In this document: positions 114-6,002 of the stretch, piece after piece
Position numbering within the stretch: the stretch's first letter is position 1
How the letters are laid out: each line of letters opens with the position of its first letter
Source of the DNA: a virus
IMG/VR virus record: IMGVR_UViG_3300020950_000017
Length of the DNA stretch: 6,002 nt
Reading direction: 5' to 3' (one strand)
The notes under the pieces: generated by a model
What the model saw: only the letters and a program-made list of their open reading frames with translations
What the model was told of the DNA's origin: nothing
Databases searched by the model: none
Position numbers and translations under genes: made by a program

Positions 114-141
114 CTATCTAGTTCCTGCGAAAATTGACGCT
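1..141. repeat. Terminal direct repeat, copy 1. It is identical to 5862..6002 and marks a circular genome linearised with an assembly overlap (unit length 5861 nt).
   Basis: Read by eye: 1..141 (aaggcgttagaatcaacgctgacg ... gaaaattgacgct) recurs base for base at 5862..6002, offset 5861. The repeat carries the F-stop / G-position-start junction (cat|cta at 111-116 = 5972-5977). Confidence 0.95.
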
Positions 142-1382
142 TGCGGTTTCGGAATGTATCGCTTGGCGAGGATGTTAATCATCAGTTGGGCTCGCCAGTG
201 TGCGAGTTGCGTTGTCTGGAAAGCCTCATCGTATTCATCGGAATCTACATAACGGAAATCTGATTTACTCTTTCCTGTGTTTTTTGAAAAGAAAGGAAAT
301 CCATCCAAATCATCGTATTGCTTATCTACATAAGTGGGATGTTCTCTGAGCCAATCGCCGTATGGCCGCATTCCAATATCATTACTGCCGTTGTGCCTAA
401 AAAAATCATCCACGGATATCGTCTGAGGTGGTTCTGCTTCAAGAATATTATAATCACCAGCCCACTCCTTATAACTCGGATTAACTTTGCCATCCAGATA
501 ATGCTTCTCATCGTCGAAAATAGTCGGGTAGCGAACTAACGCCATCACCCAGAGAGTTCCGTGCTCGTTGAAGTATTTATGAGGCATACGCATACCGCCG
601 AGTGCCATAGATTTTCCGGCATATTGTCCTAAATTGTCATTGCCTGTGCCATCCACATCCGAGCCACTCATCCAAAAGGAAGTTTTCCAGACCAACTGCG
701 GCCGTTGGTCGGCGTCTATATTCACACCGGACTTCCATCCTTGTTTAAGGACATCAGTATAGCGGCGAGCATACCACTCGCGTTGTCTTTCAGTTTTAAG
801 GTGTGCCTTTTGCTTTTCTAAATCAAGTAATGACAGAGTATTTGAATTAACATCTACATCGGTATCCGAACTCACCACATTACCATCAATTGTTGCCGAC
901 CACATACGAGGTAGCCATCCACACTTATAGCCGTGATCGCTTGCGTCTGAGTTAGCACTAGGTAGATAGTCATCAGCGACAATATCACCATCGGCGGTAG
1001 GTGCTCTAAAGTATCGATTCCAAATCTGGTTATAGCCTGCGACAACCCAGAGTGGCAATGTGCCGAGCTCGTGGCAAGCAAGATAAGGACGCAAGTCAGA
1101 GTTTGTTACTCCTTCAAAAGTCTTGGATTCATCATTGCCATCTTTAATGAAATCTACAAAATCATCGCCGTAAATGTGTCTGTGAGGAACATAAAAGGCG
1201 AATAGATCCACTTTGCTATCAATAATCAATTCACGGCGGAGAGGAGCAAGTCGCCAGATACCAGCCAAATCAATATTCATCGAATCTCCGGGCAAAACTG
1301 GAATACGGGAAAGTGTCTTGAGCCGTCCCATTGCTCCAAGAGTGAAGCATAAATGATTAAGATTAAATGCGTTGCGTTCCAT
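114..1382 (-). CDS. F: Major capsid protein, phiX174 F family, 422 aa
   Basis: Long ORF. The N-terminal block HLCFTLGAMGRLKTLSRIPVLPGDSMNIDLAGIWRLAPLRRELIIDSKVDLFAFYVPHRHIYG matches the recalled phiX174 F block HLGFLAGQIGRLITISTTPVIAGDSFEMDAVGALRLSPLRRGLAIDSTVDIFTFYVPHRHVYG. Also DADQRPQLVW..SGSDVDGTG..LGQYAG matches DADNRPLLVM..SGYDVDGTD..LGQFSG, and EHGTLWVMALVRYP matches EHGTMFTLALVRFP. The size is close to phiX F (about 426 aa) and well short of gokushovirus VP1 (above 500 aa). The ATG at 1382 overlaps the upstream stop (TAATG). Confidence 0.95.
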   Translation of the reverse strand: MERNAFNLNHLCFTLGAMGRLKTLSRIPVLPGDSMNIDLAGIWRLAPLRRELIIDSKVDLFAFYVPHRHIYGDDFVDFIKDGNDESKTFEGVTNSDLRPYLACHELGTLPLWVVAGYNQIWNRYFRAPTADGDIVADDYLPSANSDASDHGYKCGWLPRMWSATIDGNVVSSDTDVDVNSNTLSLLDLEKQKAHLKTERQREWYARRYTDVLKQGWKSGVNIDADQRPQLVWKTSFWMSGSDVDGTGNDNLGQYAGKSMALGGMRMPHKYFNEHGTLWVMALVRYPTIFDDEKHYLDGKVNPSYKEWAGDYNILEAEPPQTISVDDFFRHNGSNDIGMRPYGDWLREHPTYVDKQYDDLDGFPFFSKNTGKSKSDFRYVDSDEYDEAFQTTQLAHWRAQLMINILAKRYIPKPQASIFAGTR

Positions 1383-1903
1383 TAGCGTATTCTTTTCATT
1401 TCCGTATGCGTTTTTTCAAAGTAGCGTTTATCATCATTCCCAACATTAGATATATGTATCCATTCATTATATTCGTTTATAGCTACATCAAAATGAAATA
1501 AATTAGTATGTAGTTCCTCATGCTTCAATTGACAAGCGTATATCTGCTCAGCAACCCAGTTAATAGATCGATTTGGAACTATAAAATCGACAGCATTACC
1601 ATATGTATGTTGGCTCGTCAGCGTACCACCAACAAAAGCATTAAGAGTAGTACAACGATAGCCAGAAGTTATCACTACAGGCAAACCTAAATAATCACGC
1701 AATGGGTCTAGTGTGTATGTAGTCAATCGCACTAAACTATTAAAAACCTCAATCGGCTGGGTATCCGATTCGTCCGGAAAATTCTTTATGCCTTTCTGGT
1801 GTGCGGTGCGGGACCGGAACAATTCGTCAAGGCTGAAGTAGTCAGATAACCAAGTGTCATTGCTACCAAAATCCTTAGGCGATAATGGCTCTGTTTTAAT
1901 CAA
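1382..1903 (-). CDS. Zinc D-Ala-D-Ala / L-Ala-D-Glu type peptidase, M15 family (endolysin-like cell-wall hydrolase), 173 aa, probable TTG start
   Basis: M15 signature ITSGYRCTTLNAFVGGTLTSQHTYGNAVDF (SGYR..N..GG...SxH-x6-D) plus the distal WIHIS histidine. Predicted Zn ligands are H99, D106 and H150. No N-terminal signal peptide or TM segment. There is no in-frame ATG until residue 168. The TTG at 1903..1901 lies 9 nt downstream of GGAGG (1917..1913) and overlaps the J stop (TTTTGA). Its stop overlaps the F start (TAATG at 1384..1380). Confidence 0.85.
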   Translation of the reverse strand: MIKTEPLSPKDFGSNDTWLSDYFSLDELFRSRTAHQKGIKNFPDESDTQPIEVFNSLVRLTTYTLDPLRDYLGLPVVITSGYRCTTLNAFVGGTLTSQHTYGNAVDFIVPNRSINWVAEQIYACQLKHEELHTNLFHFDVAINEYNEWIHISNVGNDDKRYFEKTHTEMKRIR

Positions 1904-1983
1904 AACCGAATCCCTCCTACTATATTAGTTCTCTTGCCACCGCCTCGGCGAGAGGCTCGCTTGCTACTAGGCTTCCGGCTCAT
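1900..1983 (-). CDS. J: J-like small basic DNA-binding / packaging peptide, 27 aa (MSRKPSSKRASRRGGGKRTNIVGGIRF). Not in the supplied ORF track.
   Basis: Hand translation from the ATG at 1983..1981 to the TGA at 1902..1900. It has 9 basic and 0 acidic residues in 27. The C-terminal NIVGGIRF resembles the recalled phiX174 J C-terminus (..LWYVGGQQF) and the G4 J end (..LWYVGGTQY). GAGGT (1997..1993) lies 9 nt upstream of the ATG. It sits between D and the capsid module, as in phiX174. Confidence 0.8.
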   Translation of the reverse strand: MSRKPSSKRASRRGGGKRTNIVGGIRF

Positions 1984-2012
1984 TTTTTTGCGACCTCTAG
2001 AAAAGCGACGCT

Positions 2013-2483
2013 TCACTTGGCTTTCTCCACCGCGTGCTCGATCATGTACTTACCGTCTTTATTGAATAACTTTTGATACTCCTTATACTCACCAGAACTT
2101 GCTAACAGAACAAGTCCGAACAAACGGGAGGGGCTAAACTTAGAAGGCGAATCATCACGAACAGCGACATCTACATCCAAATACACGCCCTGCATATAGC
2201 TACACGCCGCCATATAATTTACTGGAGCAACAAACATTGCTATTATTGCTGCCAAATACTCAGCACAGAGATCCATCTGGGGAAGGCCTTGGGCAGACAT
2301 ACTGCCACCAATGAGCGATTGAAGCGTTCTACAAACTGAATGTTTATCGGTCGACATCCATACCTTATTACCAGTCAAAAGCTTAAAGTCGTCAGGGTTA
2401 ATTCCCAATCCTTGGATACCGTGAGCCTTCGCAGTCTGAGCTACTACACTCATCGCACTTAAACAAATTGCGTTATCTTTCAT
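2013..2483 (-). CDS. D: External scaffolding protein, phiX174 D family, 156 aa (the open frame extends to a TTG at 2567, but the ATG at 2483 is preferred)
   Basis: INPDDFKLLTGNKVWMSTDK matches recalled phiX D LTEDDFDFLTSNKVWIATDR. YLAAIIAMFVAPVNYMAACSYMQG matches FIAAVIAYYVHPVNIQTACLIMEG. From the ATG at 2483 the DDF motif falls at residues 30-32, against 31-33 in phiX D, and the length is 156 aa against 152. GGAG (2495..2492) lies 8 nt upstream. The ATG overlaps the upstream stop as ATGA (2483..2480). Confidence 0.9.
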   Translation of the reverse strand: MKDNAICLSAMSVVAQTAKAHGIQGLGINPDDFKLLTGNKVWMSTDKHSVCRTLQSLIGGSMSAQGLPQMDLCAEYLAAIIAMFVAPVNYMAACSYMQGVYLDVDVAVRDDSPSKFSPSRLFGLVLLASSGEYKEYQKLFNKDGKYMIEHAVEKAK

Positions 2484-2761
2484 TGTGATTTCTCCAATAG
2501 TTTTAATCCTTTGTTGCTTCGGACTTGATTGGCAAACATTCTTATTATGTGTTCCGATTCCAAGCAAGCATACTCTAGATTCAATTCGGCTTGACGCACC
2601 GCGTCAGTCGGATGATCTAGCTCAGACTTAAAAAAATCAGAGCGAGCCGAGTGTAAAACATCCAACGCGCTCTGAATAGCGACAGCGACCTTGCCAAGCT
2701 CATCTAAAGAGCGAGGACAAAGCAAATCATCTGCCGAAGGGTTGAGGTTAATATGATTCAT
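2480..2761 (-). CDS. Hypothetical acidic 93-aa protein at the position of phiX174 gene C (DNA maturation). The assignment is by synteny only.
   Basis: The ORF runs from the ATG at 2761 to the TGA at 2482..2480 and is coupled to D by ATGA. It lies between Rep and D and is similar in size to phiX C (86 aa). I see no sequence similarity to the recalled phiX C, and there is no clear SD upstream. Confidence 0.6.
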   Translation of the reverse strand: MNHINLNPSADDLLCPRSLDELGKVAVAIQSALDVLHSARSDFFKSELDHPTDAVRQAELNLEYACLESEHIIRMFANQVRSNKGLKLLEKSQ

Positions 2762-2767
2762 AGCTCT

Positions 2768-2795
2768 ATATTACCAAATCAGCAAAAGCTGTCAA
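2768..2795 (-). promoter_or_regulatory. Candidate sigma70-type promoter: -35 TTGACA (2795..2790), 16-nt spacer, extended TGn, -10 TAATAT (2773..2768)
   Basis: The minus strand reads TTGACAgcttttgctgatttggTAATATagagctATG. The -35 is a perfect match, TG sits one base upstream of the -10, and the -10 matches 4 of 6 positions including the key A2 and T6. The Rep stop TGA (2794..2792) lies inside the -35. The predicted transcription start falls at or next to the A of the ATG at 2761. Confidence 0.45.
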
Positions 2796-2877
2796 GTGCC
2801 GTGATAGATATTAGCTGAACCGCCAAAAACAGGGACACTGAGACTATTAGGATTAAAATTAAATCTTGATTCCACAT
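2779..2877 (-). CDS. Candidate 32-aa single-pass hydrophobic peptide (MWNQDLILILIVSVSLFLAVQLISITALDSFC), overprinted on the Rep 3' end at the position of phiX174 gene K. Not in the ORF track.
   Basis: Hand translation of the third minus-strand frame: ATG at 2877..2875, TGA at 2781..2779. GAGGTG (2889..2884) lies 6 nt upstream of the ATG. Residues 6-28 form an uninterrupted hydrophobic stretch. The ORF starts 24 nt after the B-like stop and ends 18 nt before the C-position ATG. Confidence 0.35.
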   Translation of the reverse strand: MWNQDLILILIVSVSLFLAVQLISITALDSFC

Positions 2878-4240
2878 CTGCTACACCTCTACCAATTACC
2901 TTAAAACCTGCCGTGAGTTTTGAGCTCATCGGGCGTATCGATTCCAAAGAACTCAGCTGGTTGCGGAGTGGTCTCATCTTTGTTATACATCTGGAAGGCG
3001 GTAGCAATGTCGCCTTCGGCTTTATAGCCATCAATAGTAAATGTATTCGTCTCGGCTTCATCCGACTCAACATCACCTTCACCATCAGCCTCTTTATTAA
3101 TCTTGTTGGTATCCAGCGATCGAACATCTGTATCGGGATTCTGTTTAATCTCATCAGCTGTAGTATCTGGGTTTGCGTTAGTTTGTTGAGAATCGCTTTC
3201 AGCTGATTCAATCCGTGATTCCGAGTTTGTCTTAATCTCCATAACTTCTTACCTCCAGATAAATCTAAGTCTTGATCTTTGACTAAATATTTAACTACAT
3301 AATAACAGATTGCTCTTATATCGCTAGTCTTAATTGCGGAGTAGTTGCCAAGCTCATCCCTAGCGACCGGAAAACGCCAGCCCAGCTTACTGTATGGGTC
3401 ATCAGCACTTGTTCTCACAGCAATTGGCGAGCTAAATCCATAGTTCCAGTATTCTTTAAGTTCCTGTATCTCACGCAACGCAGGTGCGGGCGGATGTGTT
3501 GAAGTATAGCTAAAACGAGAATTAGGATCACGCCAGCCAGCTGGCAAAGCCTTAAGCCACATTAAACAATGTATATGAAGGCGACCAGTCTCACTGCCTC
3601 TCTCTACACAGGCGAAGTAAGTAAGCACCTCAGGTTGATTCTGTGCTTCTCTAACCGAGCCATATACTTCAATCTGAACGGCTCTTTTCACCTTTCTTAT
3701 ATGATTACGCCAACATCTGCTACCCTTCTCAAACACTTTGTCTAGGTGCTCTGGAGCGACCGTGAGAGTATTGAAAATGGGATACCATCCCTGATGTCTC
3801 TTTTCAAATGCCTCACAAACAAGCCTAAACATAGCTTGGCCGTTACTTGCCTTCCTAGCTTGCTTGGCTACTAAGTGCCAAAATATGGCGTCTACGCCTT
3901 TCTTCCGGCTGCGGTGAGGAGCGTAGAAGCCAAATAGTGCCTCACAGTGGGACTGGTGATCGGGATACTCTTTGAATAAATCTGTTAATTCTGCTGACAT
4001 TATACGGCGGTGGTCCATAAAATCAGTAATATCAAGTCGGCAAAACTGAAACGAGTTATAGTAGTCATATAGACGCTGGAGATGGTTGAATATTGAAGGA
4101 TCGGTGCCAGAGGCTTCGGCGTGACAATAGAGGACACGCAAACGGTTTTCAAGCCGTCTGAATAGCTGATAGGTCCGGTCTTGGAAGTATGACCGTGCGA
4201 AAGGGCCTTCTTTACTTTTTGAGTTGCTTGCGGATTTCAT
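2792..4240 (-). CDS. A: Rolling-circle replication initiator (HUH endonuclease), phiX174 gene A family, 482 aa from the ATG at 4240 (the open frame extends to a TTG at 4351, 519 aa)
   Basis: Motif 1 is GWYPIFNTLTV (phiX GWFIVFDTLTL). Motif 2 (HUH) is GRLHIHCLMW, with HIH = CATATACAT at 3577..3569 (phiX GRLHFHAVHF). Motif 3 is YYVVKYLVKDQDLDL, with paired tyrosines 4 residues apart (phiX FYVAKYVNKKSDMDL). AAGGAG (4250..4245) lies 4 nt upstream of the ATG at 4240. FARSYF, 14 residues in, resembles the phiX A N-terminal MVRSYY. Confidence 0.9.
   Translation of the reverse strand: MKSASNSKSKEGPFARSYFQDRTYQLFRRLENRLRVLYCHAEASGTDPSIFNHLQRLYDYYNSFQFCRLDITDFMDHRRIMSAELTDLFKEYPDHQSHCEALFGFYAPHRSRKKGVDAIFWHLVAKQARKASNGQAMFRLVCEAFEKRHQGWYPIFNTLTVAPEHLDKVFEKGSRCWRNHIRKVKRAVQIEVYGSVREAQNQPEVLTYFACVERGSETGRLHIHCLMWLKALPAGWRDPNSRFSYTSTHPPAPALREIQELKEYWNYGFSSPIAVRTSADDPYSKLGWRFPVARDELGNYSAIKTSDIRAICYYVVKYLVKDQDLDLSGGKKLWRLRQTRNHGLNQLKAILNKLTQTQILQLMRLNRIPIQMFDRWIPTRLIKRLMVKVMLSRMKPRRIHLLLMAIKPKATLLPPSRCITKMRPLRNQLSSLESIRPMSSKLTAGFKVIGRGVADVESRFNFNPNSLSVPVFGGSANIYHGT
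2901..3242 (-). CDS. B: Internal scaffolding protein, phiX174 B-like, 113 aa, encoded entirely inside Rep in another frame
   Basis: GGAGGT lies 8 nt upstream of the ATG at 3242. The protein is acidic, polar and low in complexity. Its C-terminus FQMYNKDETTPQPAEFFGIDTPDELKTHGRF matches the recalled phiX B C-terminus IYARFDKNDWRIQPAEFYRFHDAEVNTFGYF, which is the capsid-binding aromatic tail. The B-within-A nesting is the same as in phiX174. Confidence 0.8.
   Translation of the reverse strand: MEIKTNSESRIESAESDSQQTNANPDTTADEIKQNPDTDVRSLDTNKINKEADGEGDVESDEAETNTFTIDGYKAEGDIATAFQMYNKDETTPQPAEFFGIDTPDELKTHGRF
4010..4039 (-). other. Viral-strand origin of rolling-circle replication (30-nt Rep recognition and nick site) inside the Rep gene. 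The predicted nick is between G4033 and A4032 on the minus strand.
   Basis: The minus strand reads CGACTTGATATTACTGATTTTATGGACCAC. The recalled phiX174 ori is CAACTTGATATTAATAACACTATAGACCAC. By hand count, 22 of 30 positions match with no gaps, including the ACTTG|ATATTA nick core and the terminal GACCAC. It lies in the same reading-frame context (RLDITDFMDH against QLDINNTIDH). Confidence 0.8.
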
Positions 4241-4355
4241 CAATCTCCTTGCTATTTTGAATGTAGCGACACAAACCAACAGCAAAACGAGCTGAGGCTT
4301 GTATAAGAGGGATGAAGGTGACGAGCTTGGCAATGTATTTAACAGTATCAAACAT
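4212..4355 (-). CDS. Candidate 47-aa small protein (MFDTVKYIAKLVTFIPLIQASARFAVGLCRYIQNSKEIDEIRKQLKK) filling the H-to-Rep gap and overlapping the Rep start by 29 nt. Not in the ORF track.
   Basis: Hand translation: ATG at 4355..4353, TAA at 4214..4212. AAGGAG lies 7 nt upstream, directly after the H stop (TAA AGGAGTATATTG ATG). It has a hydrophobic core (residues 8-29, interrupted by K10 and R23) and a charged helical tail. It is in a different frame from Rep. Confidence 0.45.
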   Translation of the reverse strand: MFDTVKYIAKLVTFIPLIQASARFAVGLCRYIQNSKEIDEIRKQLKK

Positions 4356-4367
4356 CAATATACTCCT

Positions 4368-5309
4368 TTATTTATTGAATGGAAGTTTGGGTTGTTGAGG
4401 AGTAATCTTAGGAGATTCTAAGTCAAACTTAGGACGAGGCTTACGCTTCTTAGTGGCTCGCATTAAAGACTTAGCACTAGAAACAAAACGAGAACCATAG
4501 CCAGCAATTCCGATAGGAAGCAAAGCAGTTAGCGTCTTAAATGTATCTTGCCAAGGAATTGATGAGCCATTATCAAAGATTGAAAAAGCGGGCGTAAGAT
4601 AGCCAAGTTCAGTCTTTTTGACATCCGCACGAGACTTAGCCTCAGCCCAAAGCGATTCAGCGTATTTAATATTACCATTATGAGCTTCTGTAATAGCACG
4701 AGCCATCAACAGTTGAGATTCACGAGTTAGTTTTTTGAGCTCAGGTGCGAGTTTTTGTGCGATAGCATTAGCCTCTTGGCGAGCTTTTTCAGATAAGCCG
4801 TAATTAAGTGCTATTTTACTATCTACTAAATCACGACGAACAGAGACTTGAGTATCCCAGTCTTGTGTGTCTTTACCTTCCAAATGAGCCGTTCCTCCAA
4901 CAGTCGCATTGCGTCCTACTGATACGCCGGCCGCAGTGACTTGAGCTCTTGCGTTAATTCTGGCAATTTTTTCTGATGTCCGTAATTTTTCTCTTTCCAG
5001 TTGTGCTCCAAGACCACGAGCACCAACACCGCTACCCGATGAGCCAAGTCGTTCCCACGGATTCGTGCCGGGATATAATTTATTAAATGTATTAAGAAGT
5101 TTATCATCTGCCGTTGGAATACCAAGAATGCGTCCTCCTTGCGATACAAGCTGATTACTAATTAAATCTGAGCCAGCCTGTTGAGTTGACGCACCGAGCG
5201 ACTTGCCAAACGCCGATCCGCCAAGTGCTCCGAGTGCTCCGGAAAGCTTGCCAAAGAAACCGCCACCAGCGATCTTGGAAGCACCTGCTGAAAAAGGACC
5301 TACAGGCAT
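4368..5309 (-). CDS. H: DNA pilot (minor spike / ejection tube) protein, phiX174 H-like, 313 aa
   Basis: It follows the G-position gene as in phiX174 and is similar in size (313 aa against 328). The N-terminus is glycine-rich (AGASKIAGGGFFGKLSGALGALGGSAFGKSLG), like phiX H. YPGTNPWERLGSSGSG matches recalled phiX H FPELNAWERAGADASS. The central region is long, Q/A/E/K-rich and helical. The start overlaps the upstream stop (TAATG at 5311..5307). Confidence 0.85.
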   Translation of the reverse strand: MPVGPFSAGASKIAGGGFFGKLSGALGALGGSAFGKSLGASTQQAGSDLISNQLVSQGGRILGIPTADDKLLNTFNKLYPGTNPWERLGSSGSGVGARGLGAQLEREKLRTSEKIARINARAQVTAAGVSVGRNATVGGTAHLEGKDTQDWDTQVSVRRDLVDSKIALNYGLSEKARQEANAIAQKLAPELKKLTRESQLLMARAITEAHNGNIKYAESLWAEAKSRADVKKTELGYLTPAFSIFDNGSSIPWQDTFKTLTALLPIGIAGYGSRFVSSAKSLMRATKKRKPRPKFDLESPKITPQQPKLPFNK

Positions 5310-5974
5310 TATCTGGTAGGAACAAAAGTGGGGAAGTCTTTGTTATAGGCGTAGAGTGAGAGGCTACATCGTAAGTTAGATATATTGGTAGTGCCATTCG
5401 TGGAAACATAAGCGAATAAAATAACCACATTTTCGGAGGAAGCTACTGAATTATATATAATCGGAGTGGGTGGCAACGATAAAGTGTGTATGCGTGAGTT
5501 CTCATAGTTAATGCCAGGCAACAAGTGGTAATCAGTTATCCGGTTGATCTCCTCGTTCCAATTGCTGACACCAGCTTTCAAGTTCGCCGATGAACGCTGA
5601 CCCAAACCAAAACCAAGTGTATGAAAACTGGCTCCATCATCCTGCCTATAATGAAGAGTAGCGGACGCCATCAAGTGCCTTGGATTAAAACCTTTACGCT
5701 CTAAGGCTGGAAGAGAAAGCCAAGTCCCAAAGCTAACATTCTTACCGGCAGACAACGAACGAGCCGGCTCCATTGTATAATTGATTGATCTAAATAGATC
5801 GGTGTTAGTGGGCGGGTTATTAAACTCAATATCGTTAATCAACAAAGGGCTAAAAGTCTCAAAGGCGTTAGAATCAACGCTGACGAAAGTTGAGCCGCTT
5901 AAAAGATCGTCAATTCTCACCACATTATTAGGCTGAATAAGAACAGGTGGTCGGTTTGCTTCCGGTCTATACAT
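5309..5974 (-). CDS. 221-aa structural protein at the major-spike (phiX174 G) position. The spike role is inferred from synteny and composition only.
   Basis: A full ORF that wraps the circular junction. Its ATG (5974) directly follows the F stop (TAGATG), with AGGA 9 nt upstream, and its stop overlaps the H start. Composition is rich in S, T, N and V and looks beta-rich. I recognise no similarity to the recalled phiX or G4 G proteins (175-177 aa). Confidence 0.6.
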   Translation of the reverse strand: MYRPEANRPPVLIQPNNVVRIDDLLSGSTFVSVDSNAFETFSPLLINDIEFNNPPTNTDLFRSINYTMEPARSLSAGKNVSFGTWLSLPALERKGFNPRHLMASATLHYRQDDGASFHTLGFGLGQRSSANLKAGVSNWNEEINRITDYHLLPGINYENSRIHTLSLPPTPIIYNSVASSENVVILFAYVSTNGTTNISNLRCSLSLYAYNKDFPTFVPTR

Positions 5975-6002
5975 CTATCTAGTTCCTGCGAAAATTGACG
6001 CT
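5862..6002. repeat. Terminal direct repeat, copy 2 (identical to 1..141). It contains the last 8 sense codons plus stop of F (5975..6002) and the first 37 codons of the G-position gene.
   Basis: Base-for-base identity with 1..141 on visual comparison. Confidence 0.95.

Follow-up and report, generated by a model that had tools for sequence, protein, structure and literature searches.

How does a phiX-like microvirus lyse its host when no E-like gene can be recognised within its gene D, and what might a peptidoglycan peptidase contribute to that step? These questions are raised by IMG/VR virus record IMGVR_UViG_3300020950_000017, a 6,002-nucleotide stretch of DNA (hereafter the window, meaning the whole stretch) in which an open reading frame (ORF) of 173 codons lies between the genes for the small basic protein J and the major capsid protein F. 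An earlier note, made from the sequence alone, had read this ORF as a canonical M15 zinc peptidase inserted into a phiX-type genome, and had suggested that the lysis strategy was swapped there. Our analyses indicated that the ORF is almost certainly an intact M15_3 peptidase. In the reading we prefer, to which we assign a probability of roughly 0.6, it serves a phiX-like, D-encoding, pequenovirus-like microvirus as a lysis enzyme of the endolysin type and needs a membrane-damaging partner; a role in host lysis, taken by itself, is likely. The lysis of microviruses outside the phiX group is largely obscure, protein E being a lineage-specific invention.

An M15_3 peptidase in the chain of late genes

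The peptidase gene, its active-site codons and its boundaries are located in the window as follows.

1903..1382, minus strand: predicted M15_3 (LAS-fold) zinc peptidoglycan peptidase, 173 codons (PF08291, PHROG 894, fold model)
1454..1609, minus strand: codons of the zinc ligands H99 (1609..1607), D106 (1588..1586) and H150 (1456..1454), from the sequence and alignments
1913..1918, minus strand: Shine-Dalgarno sequence AGGAGG in the 3' end of J, 9 nucleotides upstream of the TTG start, read from the sequence
1900..1903, minus strand: TTGA overlap of the peptidase start TTG (1903..1901) with the J stop TGA (1902..1900), from the sequence
1380..1384, minus strand: TAATG overlap of the peptidase stop TAA (1384..1382) with the F start ATG (1382..1380), with one base in common, from the sequence

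The product matched Pfam Peptidase_M15_3 (PF08291; MEROPS M15A-like, clan MD) at E = 9e-19, the match covering positions 2-107 of the 108 in the profile and scoring 68.1 bits where the cut-off is 23.2. It also matched PHROG 894, annotated as 'endolysin', at 1.7e-28. In an alignment of 55 sequences the residues S80, G81, R83, N88, S97, H99, A104, D106, D139, E144, W148 and H150 were all invariant and G92 and G93 were at least 90% conserved; the zinc ligands were invariant in a separate 7-sequence alignment as well. The AlphaFold2 model of the protein (predicted local distance difference test score, pLDDT, 83.4; predicted template modelling score, pTM, 0.79) had as its top Foldseek match in the PDB the zinc DD-peptidase 1LBU (E = 3.7e-4, template modelling score 0.53, 18% identity over the fold). 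Further Foldseek matches were to Hedgehog N-domains, LysECD7, LdcB, VanXYc and the L-Ala-D-Glu peptidase of RB49, which together represent the LAS fold, and a library of viral structures gave matches, down to 7e-9, to M15A peptidases of tailed phages and marine microviruses. By sequence, 1LBU was the only solved relative (E = 1.7e-4), and the core of the protein aligned to its motif SGYR..VGG..SxH..D. Peptidoglycan cleavage is thus the predicted activity of the ORF, as judged by its sequence and modelled fold.

The N-terminal 40 residues of the peptidase are hydrophilic, the best 19-residue Kyte-Doolittle mean being -0.36, and hydropathy gave no indication of a Sec or signal-arrest-release (SAR) type signal. 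The earlier note was therefore sound in several respects: the M15 assignment (Pfam 9e-19) and its zinc site at H99, D106 and H150, the fold, the absence of a secretion signal, and the position of the gene between J and F of a D-encoding genome, which we could place at the exact J/F junction.

The boundaries of the gene indicated that it is closely integrated with its neighbours. There is no ATG in the ORF before codon 168, so the peptidase must use a non-ATG start, here the TTG at 1903..1901, with the stop TAA at 1384..1382. The AGGAGG upstream of this TTG is encoded by the conserved C-terminal VGG codons of J. The genes C and D overlap by ATGA and the genes D and J by GTGA, there is no intergenic DNA between J, the peptidase and F, and no terminator separates these three; the run of overlaps from C through F therefore shows the peptidase gene to be one of a series of late genes that are coupled in translation and follow one another without spacers. 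In two relatives that have no peptidase (L037 and L039, described below; relatives are referred to by contig number) an equivalent GGAGG in J precedes the GTG start of F, so that the gene must have been gained or lost precisely at the J/F junction. J and F are the only flanks of the peptidase gene, with no holin or spanin gene adjacent. A weak start coupled to a small upstream gene may keep expression low, which would fit a lytic enzyme.

Relatives and the history of the peptidase gene

Approximately 30 genomes that encode D, taken from GenBank, IMG/VR and metagenomes, had no homologue of the window peptidase, and a scan of IMG/VR with the peptidase found no homologue. Closer relatives came from a large protein collection and fell into two groups, those with and those without the peptidase. 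In L035/L036, whose F is 60% identical to that of the window, the order is D, J, an M15_3 peptidase of 175 residues, an ORF of 47 residues and F. In L041/L042 (F 55%) only the C-terminus of the peptidase (..NEYNEWIHI..) is present, followed by an ORF of 52 residues and then F. In L037/L038 (F 59%) and L039/L040 (F 57%), D, J and F are in direct succession with no peptidase. Duplicate contigs were identical, with no microdiversity.

An F tree of these lineages, with the window genome as WIN, had the form (WIN,(L035,(L041,(L037,L039)))) with bootstraps of 100, 100, 95 and 90, so that the peptidase carriers are paraphyletic. The peptidases of the window and L035 are 44-46% identical, were sisters among 61 M15_3 proteins (94.5% bootstrap), and are the only ones with an N-terminal extension of approximately 18 residues and an internal insertion. 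When 1.84 billion representatives were searched exhaustively, the L035 protein was the sole full-length match (3e-29), all other matches having E values of approximately 1e-19 and at most 51% local identity; a word-indexed search with the peptidase returned only itself. The phylogeny of the peptidase thus supplied a well-supported sister, although not the donor for which the earlier note had hoped, as none could be named from these searches. The nearest homologues outside the microviruses are in tailed-phage contigs, the closest in a phage-like contig of approximately 43 kb.

Because homologues occupy the same site in relatives whose F proteins are only 55-60% identical, these comparisons indicate that the gene is old in the lineage, and not a recent insertion as the earlier note had implied; its coupling to both J and F also speaks against such an event. 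Based on the F tree, one old gain at the base of the subclade and one loss in the common ancestor of L037 and L039 would be the simplest history.

The base composition of the gene is consistent with this history. The hand counts of G+C in the earlier note proved exact (184 of 480 and 79 of 240), and its hint of a foreign origin was correct to the extent that composition is non-uniform: the peptidase gene is the lowest-G+C stretch of 522 nucleotides in the genome (38.3%, the mean being 43.7%), and no window that does not overlap it is as low, the minimum elsewhere being 39.5%. However, the dip persists in diverged relatives (39.0% against 43.3% in L035; 37.4% against 43.4% in L042), and because these have the same dip it is a stable property of the gene and no mark of recent transfer.

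A second M15-clan peptidase was found in this lineage. In a Pfam survey of 47 accessory ORFs from D-encoding relatives, the only wall hydrolase was a Peptidase_M15_4 in L045, a concatemer of a D-encoding microvirus of approximately 6 kb (F 47%). Its gene lies between A/B and C at 4134-4571 and is repeated at 10172 and 16209. This is an independent acquisition at a different site from that in the window, so that the D-encoding lineage has taken up M15-clan peptidases at least twice. The equivalent site in L051 is occupied by an ORF of 180 residues with a weak SprT-like match only.

Two further observations concern these relatives. The small ORF of 47-52 residues between the peptidase and F (MEQL..AQAIF.AEALVGH.., at 2496-2639 in L035, 110-268 in L041 and 196-354 in L042) is absent from the window and from the genomes without a peptidase, a distribution from which we infer that it was gained after the window lineage split off and lost together with the peptidase. 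In L052, a contig of 23.4 kb from SRR23272327, a D-encoding microvirus (F 46%) is integrated beside hflX, mazG and recX, and the neighbouring MazG is 84% identical to that of Sneathiella metagenome-assembled genomes; D-encoding microviruses can therefore be prophages of Alphaproteobacteria. A scan of genome contigs with the F alignment found no prophage relatives from which to assign a host to the window phage.

Gene E, candidate partners and the role of the enzyme

No ATG-initiated E analogue had been seen inside D in the earlier note, and this also held for GTG and TTG starts. The longest off-frame ORF on the minus strand inside D was 22 residues, below the medians of 38 and 30 residues obtained after shuffling of synonymous codons (p = 0.93 and 0.85). 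As a positive control, the same kind of scan recovered gene E of coliphage ID52 as a +1-frame ORF with a hydropathy of 2.79. A codon-permutation test across the genome identified B within A as the only alternate-frame ORF longer than expected by chance. Hydrophobic +1-frame ORFs in F, G and H were considered as E-like genes and rejected, as every relative has them and third codon positions rich in T would be expected to give rise to them.

In L037 and L039, which have no peptidase, D likewise contains no E-like ORF (0 and 33 residues). The lack of E thus characterises the subclade as a whole and does not alternate with possession of the peptidase. A simple exchange of E for the peptidase, the swap suggested earlier, is therefore not supported, and some other lysis factor must exist. 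Hydrophobic +1-frame ORFs of 83-148 residues are present in D of several pequenovirus-like genomes (L006, L010, L011, L028 and L031) and may be E analogues that exist beyond the enterobacterial phages; in L006 and L011 the hydrophobic +1 frame of D continues into J.

Two small ORFs of the window were considered as lysis partners.

4355..4212, minus strand: s47, basic ORF of 47 residues between H and A, with homologues in all five lineages of the subclade
2877..2779, minus strand: s32, strongly hydrophobic ORF of 32 residues (hydropathy 2.78) across the end of A, in the position of phiX gene K

The s47 family (47-54 residues) is kept both with and without the peptidase and is the one conserved non-core gene of the subclade. 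Its members have a hydropathy of 1.4-2.1, which is borderline for a transmembrane segment, an invariant proline within that segment, a basic C-terminus and a net charge of +3 to +6; s47 has no Pfam or PHROG match. Its 3' codons (NSKEID) also encode the Shine-Dalgarno sequence AAGGAG and the ATG of gene A. The ORF s32 was rejected as a conserved partner, having no sequence homologue in the relatives; it matched no known holin family in Pfam or PHROG and is a weak candidate only, possibly a chance ORF. In these genomes, chance alone is expected to produce hydrophobic off-frame ORFs.

In both peptidase-less lineages an additional small ORF lies between H and the s47 homologue, s54 (L037:742-888 and L039:3081-3197). 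These ORFs are mutually unrelated, and that of L039 is strongly transmembrane (hydropathy 3.3). This is suggestive of a replacement, and they may be substitute lysis genes. In the more distant L043 (3580-4255) and L044 (1207-1899), with F approximately 49-50% identical, three ORFs lie between H and A: a transmembrane ORF of 42 residues, an ORF of 113-116 residues with a lipobox-like LLSSCG (a putative lipoprotein) and an ORF of 56-60 residues. This block may be a lysis or exclusion cassette.

In our preferred reading, the peptidase would have entered the lineage once, at the base of the subclade and probably from a tailed phage, with a subsequent loss in one branch. The late D-J-F message would yield only a little of it, by way of its TTG start and its coupling to J, and it would get to the wall only once another phage protein damages the inner membrane, a breach that it would need because it has no export signal. 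For that damage, s47 would be the only conserved candidate outside the core genes. The lysis role is argued from the homologues of the enzyme being endolysins (the KS9 cassette; Roux et al. 2012).

Several points weigh against this reading. Pfam, PHROG and hydropathy analyses of the genome revealed no recognisable holin, spanin or signal sequence. The ORF s47 is only borderline hydrophobic and is not adjacent to the peptidase, and its conservation, seen in the NSKEID motif, may come in part from the overlapping start signals of gene A. L037 and L039 presumably lyse without the peptidase, so that at least one genetic background can do without the enzyme. The trees behind the proposed gain and loss are neighbour-joining trees with few taxa. 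We hold the identification of s47 as the peptidase's partner to be tentative, with the odds somewhat against it; s47 could be a holin-like membrane partner, or it could be an independent primary lysis protein to which the peptidase is accessory.

The latter possibility belongs to the alternative that survives best, although we consider it rather unlikely. Here the peptidase would be an accessory that speeds lysis or widens the host range, and the primary agent would be a small protein, s47 or an unrecognised ORF, that acts on the membrane or blocks wall synthesis. Protein E alone suffices for lysis in phiX174. L037 and L039, in which both the enzyme and an E-like ORF in D are missing, nevertheless keep s47/s54, each with an extra small ORF beside it, and s47 resembles single-gene lysis proteins in its size, charge and the proline in its hydrophobic segment. 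Against this alternative, the catalytic residues have been kept intact across 40-45% divergence of F in a space-limited genome of 5.9 kb, the hydropathy of s47 is borderline, and s47 matches no known lysis family.

A two-part scheme for the whole subclade, in which basic membrane proteins of approximately 50 residues (s47/s54) would open the inner membrane for a cytoplasmic M15 endolysin, and in which the enzyme of L037 and L039 would have been replaced by new small hydrophobic ORFs at the H-A junction, is unlikely in that full form. If it were true, s47 would represent a previously unrecognised holin-like or single-gene lysis family, and the subclade would be a compact natural system for the gain, loss and replacement of lysis modules in the smallest DNA phages.

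A role at entry, in which a few copies of the peptidase carried with the virion or the pilot protein would open the peptidoglycan locally for DNA delivery, appears improbable. M15A domains are also fused to Gp5-like tail-tip proteins of tailed phages, and the peptidoglycan hydrolase Gp7 of Ebor is found in trace amounts in virions (PMC11980548). However, the window protein consists of the catalytic domain alone, without any module for structure or for binding to the capsid, there is little spare room in a T=1 capsid, the closest characterised homologues lie in lysis cassettes, and relatives manage without the enzyme. In addition, phiX-type phages deliver their DNA through a tube of H protein and without a hydrolase.

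That the ORF is a recently acquired and possibly decaying passenger with no role in the phage cycle, its low G+C being a trace of transfer, is barely credible: although it is the lowest-G+C stretch of the genome and is missing from the approximately 30 other D-encoding genomes, the same gene, site and G+C dip recur in relatives whose F identity is no more than 55-60%, none of the catalytic residues has been lost, the coupling to J and F is tight, and there is no full-length homologue above 46% identity among the 1.84 billion representatives.

Genome setting and comparison with known systems

The window holds a complete circular microvirus genome of 5,861 nucleotides with an exact terminal redundancy of 141 nucleotides (1-141 = 5862-6002), and its sequence matches a Logan contig from SRR15015748. 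The genes, all on the minus strand, follow the order of phiX174 except for a single added gene, A(B)-C-D-J-[peptidase]-F-G-H; the assignments of C, G and J rest on position, size and composition only.

4240..2792, minus strand: A, replication initiator (PHROG 713, 5e-62; Pfam REP_ORF2-G2P / Phage_GPA)
3242..2901, minus strand: B-like internal scaffolding ORF, 113 residues, overprinted in A (codon-permutation test, p = 0.001)
2761..2480, minus strand: C-like ORF, by position
2483..2013, minus strand: D, external scaffolding protein, 156 residues from the ATG at 2483 (Pfam gpD, 2.7e-15; PHROG 1386, 6e-30)
2016..1900, minus strand: J-like small basic DNA-binding protein, 38 residues, GTG start (alignment with the J ORFs of relatives)
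1382..114, minus strand: F, major capsid protein, 422 residues (Pfam Phage_F, 1.6e-59)
5974..5309, minus strand: G-like ORF, 221 residues, directly after the F stop (114) across the circle junction
5309..4368, minus strand: H-like ORF, with a weak match to a pilot-protein PHROG

The probable start of A is the ATG at 4240 following AAGGAG, based on comparison with A of L035. The B-like ORF is acidic and ends in ..THGRF; homologues of 113 residues ending in ..NGRF are present in L035, L037 and L039, and the equivalent ORFs of L045 and L052 gave weak Pfam Phage_B matches. J aligned with its counterparts in L035 and L037 and also with a small basic ORF of Vibrio phage WS1, the common feature being a C-terminal GGxR(F/A/M). 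The G-like ORF has no Pfam or PHROG match; its homologues in the subclade are 28-32% identical.

The gene order and the presence of D agree with the phiX-type assignment of the earlier note, although the genome does not belong to the Bullavirinae (the phiX-group phages) proper: its D and F are only approximately 30% and 37% identical to theirs. F is 43-48% identical to pequenovirus-like F proteins, and the genome's closest relatives in GenBank are the 'pequenoviruses' of the Eel River basin (F 43-46%). Based on these low identities, the clustering of F with pequenovirus-like genomes and the lack of an E-like ORF, sequence comparison places the genome as a D-encoding phiX-type microvirus (Kirchberger Family 1 / Suborder I) that is pequenovirus-like and outside the Bullavirinae proper.

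Counts of promoter-like and terminator-like sequences in the window were not above those in shuffled sequence. The best promoter-like site on the coding strand (2768-2795, minus strand; TTGACA, 16 nucleotides, TG-TAATAT) lies between A and C, upstream of C-D-J-peptidase-F. An imperfect direct repeat of 33 nucleotides (73% identical, at 2691-2723 and 3345-3377, beginning TTGCCAAGCTCATC) is probably due to chance.

As the window genome shows, an endolysin gene of the tailed-phage type has been kept stably in the D-encoding two-scaffold lineage, described as closed to gene uptake, and close relatives with and without the gene offer a natural comparison. How an endolysin without a signal crosses the inner membrane with no recognised holin is testable here, as the list of candidates is short (s47 and s32) and the 5.9-kb genome can be synthesized.

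The problem of lysis is one that phiX174 also faces, in a genome that matches this one in gene order and in its D gene, but phiX protein E is a single-gene MraY inhibitor overprinted in D and works by an entirely different mechanism. The Streptomyces albus G zinc D-Ala-D-Ala carboxypeptidase (1LBU) has in common with the window protein the core SGxR..N..GG..SxH..D, but it is bacterial and secreted, and at its N-terminus it has an additional peptidoglycan-binding domain.

Tailed phages offer closer enzymatic parallels. The M15A/M15_3 endolysins KS9 gp23, the peptidase M15 of Pseudomonas phage PaBG and the endolysin of Bacteroides phage B124-14 are 33-42% identical to the window protein over the catalytic domain and have the same zinc ligands. 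Burkholderia phage KS9 gp23 (36% identical) lies in a holin-endolysin-Rz/Rz1 cassette; in contrast, the window gene has no neighbouring holin or spanin and is located within the structural operon, coupled to J and F.

Among microviruses, M15_3 peptidases were first reported in 2012 in the Gokushovirinae and Alpavirinae and were argued to be endolysins (Roux et al., PMC3394797), and Kirchberger et al. 2022 list them for Families 2, 7, 14 and others (PMC9239249), so that the earlier note was right about such enzymes in other microviruses. These peptidases, including those of the bajarodmic viruses and marine mar50-59, belong to the same Pfam family and are likewise small single-domain proteins; the window protein is 37% identical to that of bajarodmic virus 28. 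They are also assigned the same role, that of a horizontally acquired endolysin in a single-stranded DNA phage of approximately 5-6 kb with no recognised holin. However, the other M15_3 microviruses have no D and no G spike and have a VP1-VP2-VP4 layout, whereas here the gene is between J and F in the phiX order, and its product has the N-terminal extension and insertion found otherwise only in L035. That a microviral wall hydrolase can work is indicated by Gp7 of Ebor (Tainavirinae), a peptidoglycan hydrolase that is enzymatically active (PMC11980548). Ebor Gp7 is an accessory muralytic enzyme within the same size range as the window protein (approximately 146-173 residues), but it comes from a different lineage without D, and the comparison here is one of role.

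Kirchberger Family 1, which comprises the Bullavirinae and the pequenoviruses, was described by its D and spike proteins with no peptidase named there (PMC9239249), and our literature search, which had the original pequenovirus paper outside its range, found no report of an M15 peptidase in a D-encoding microvirus. As a further M15_3 enzyme in a microvirus, here one of the D-encoding lineage, the window peptidase is an incremental addition to those already known, and it comes with a series of relatives that record its gain and loss and with a candidate partner.

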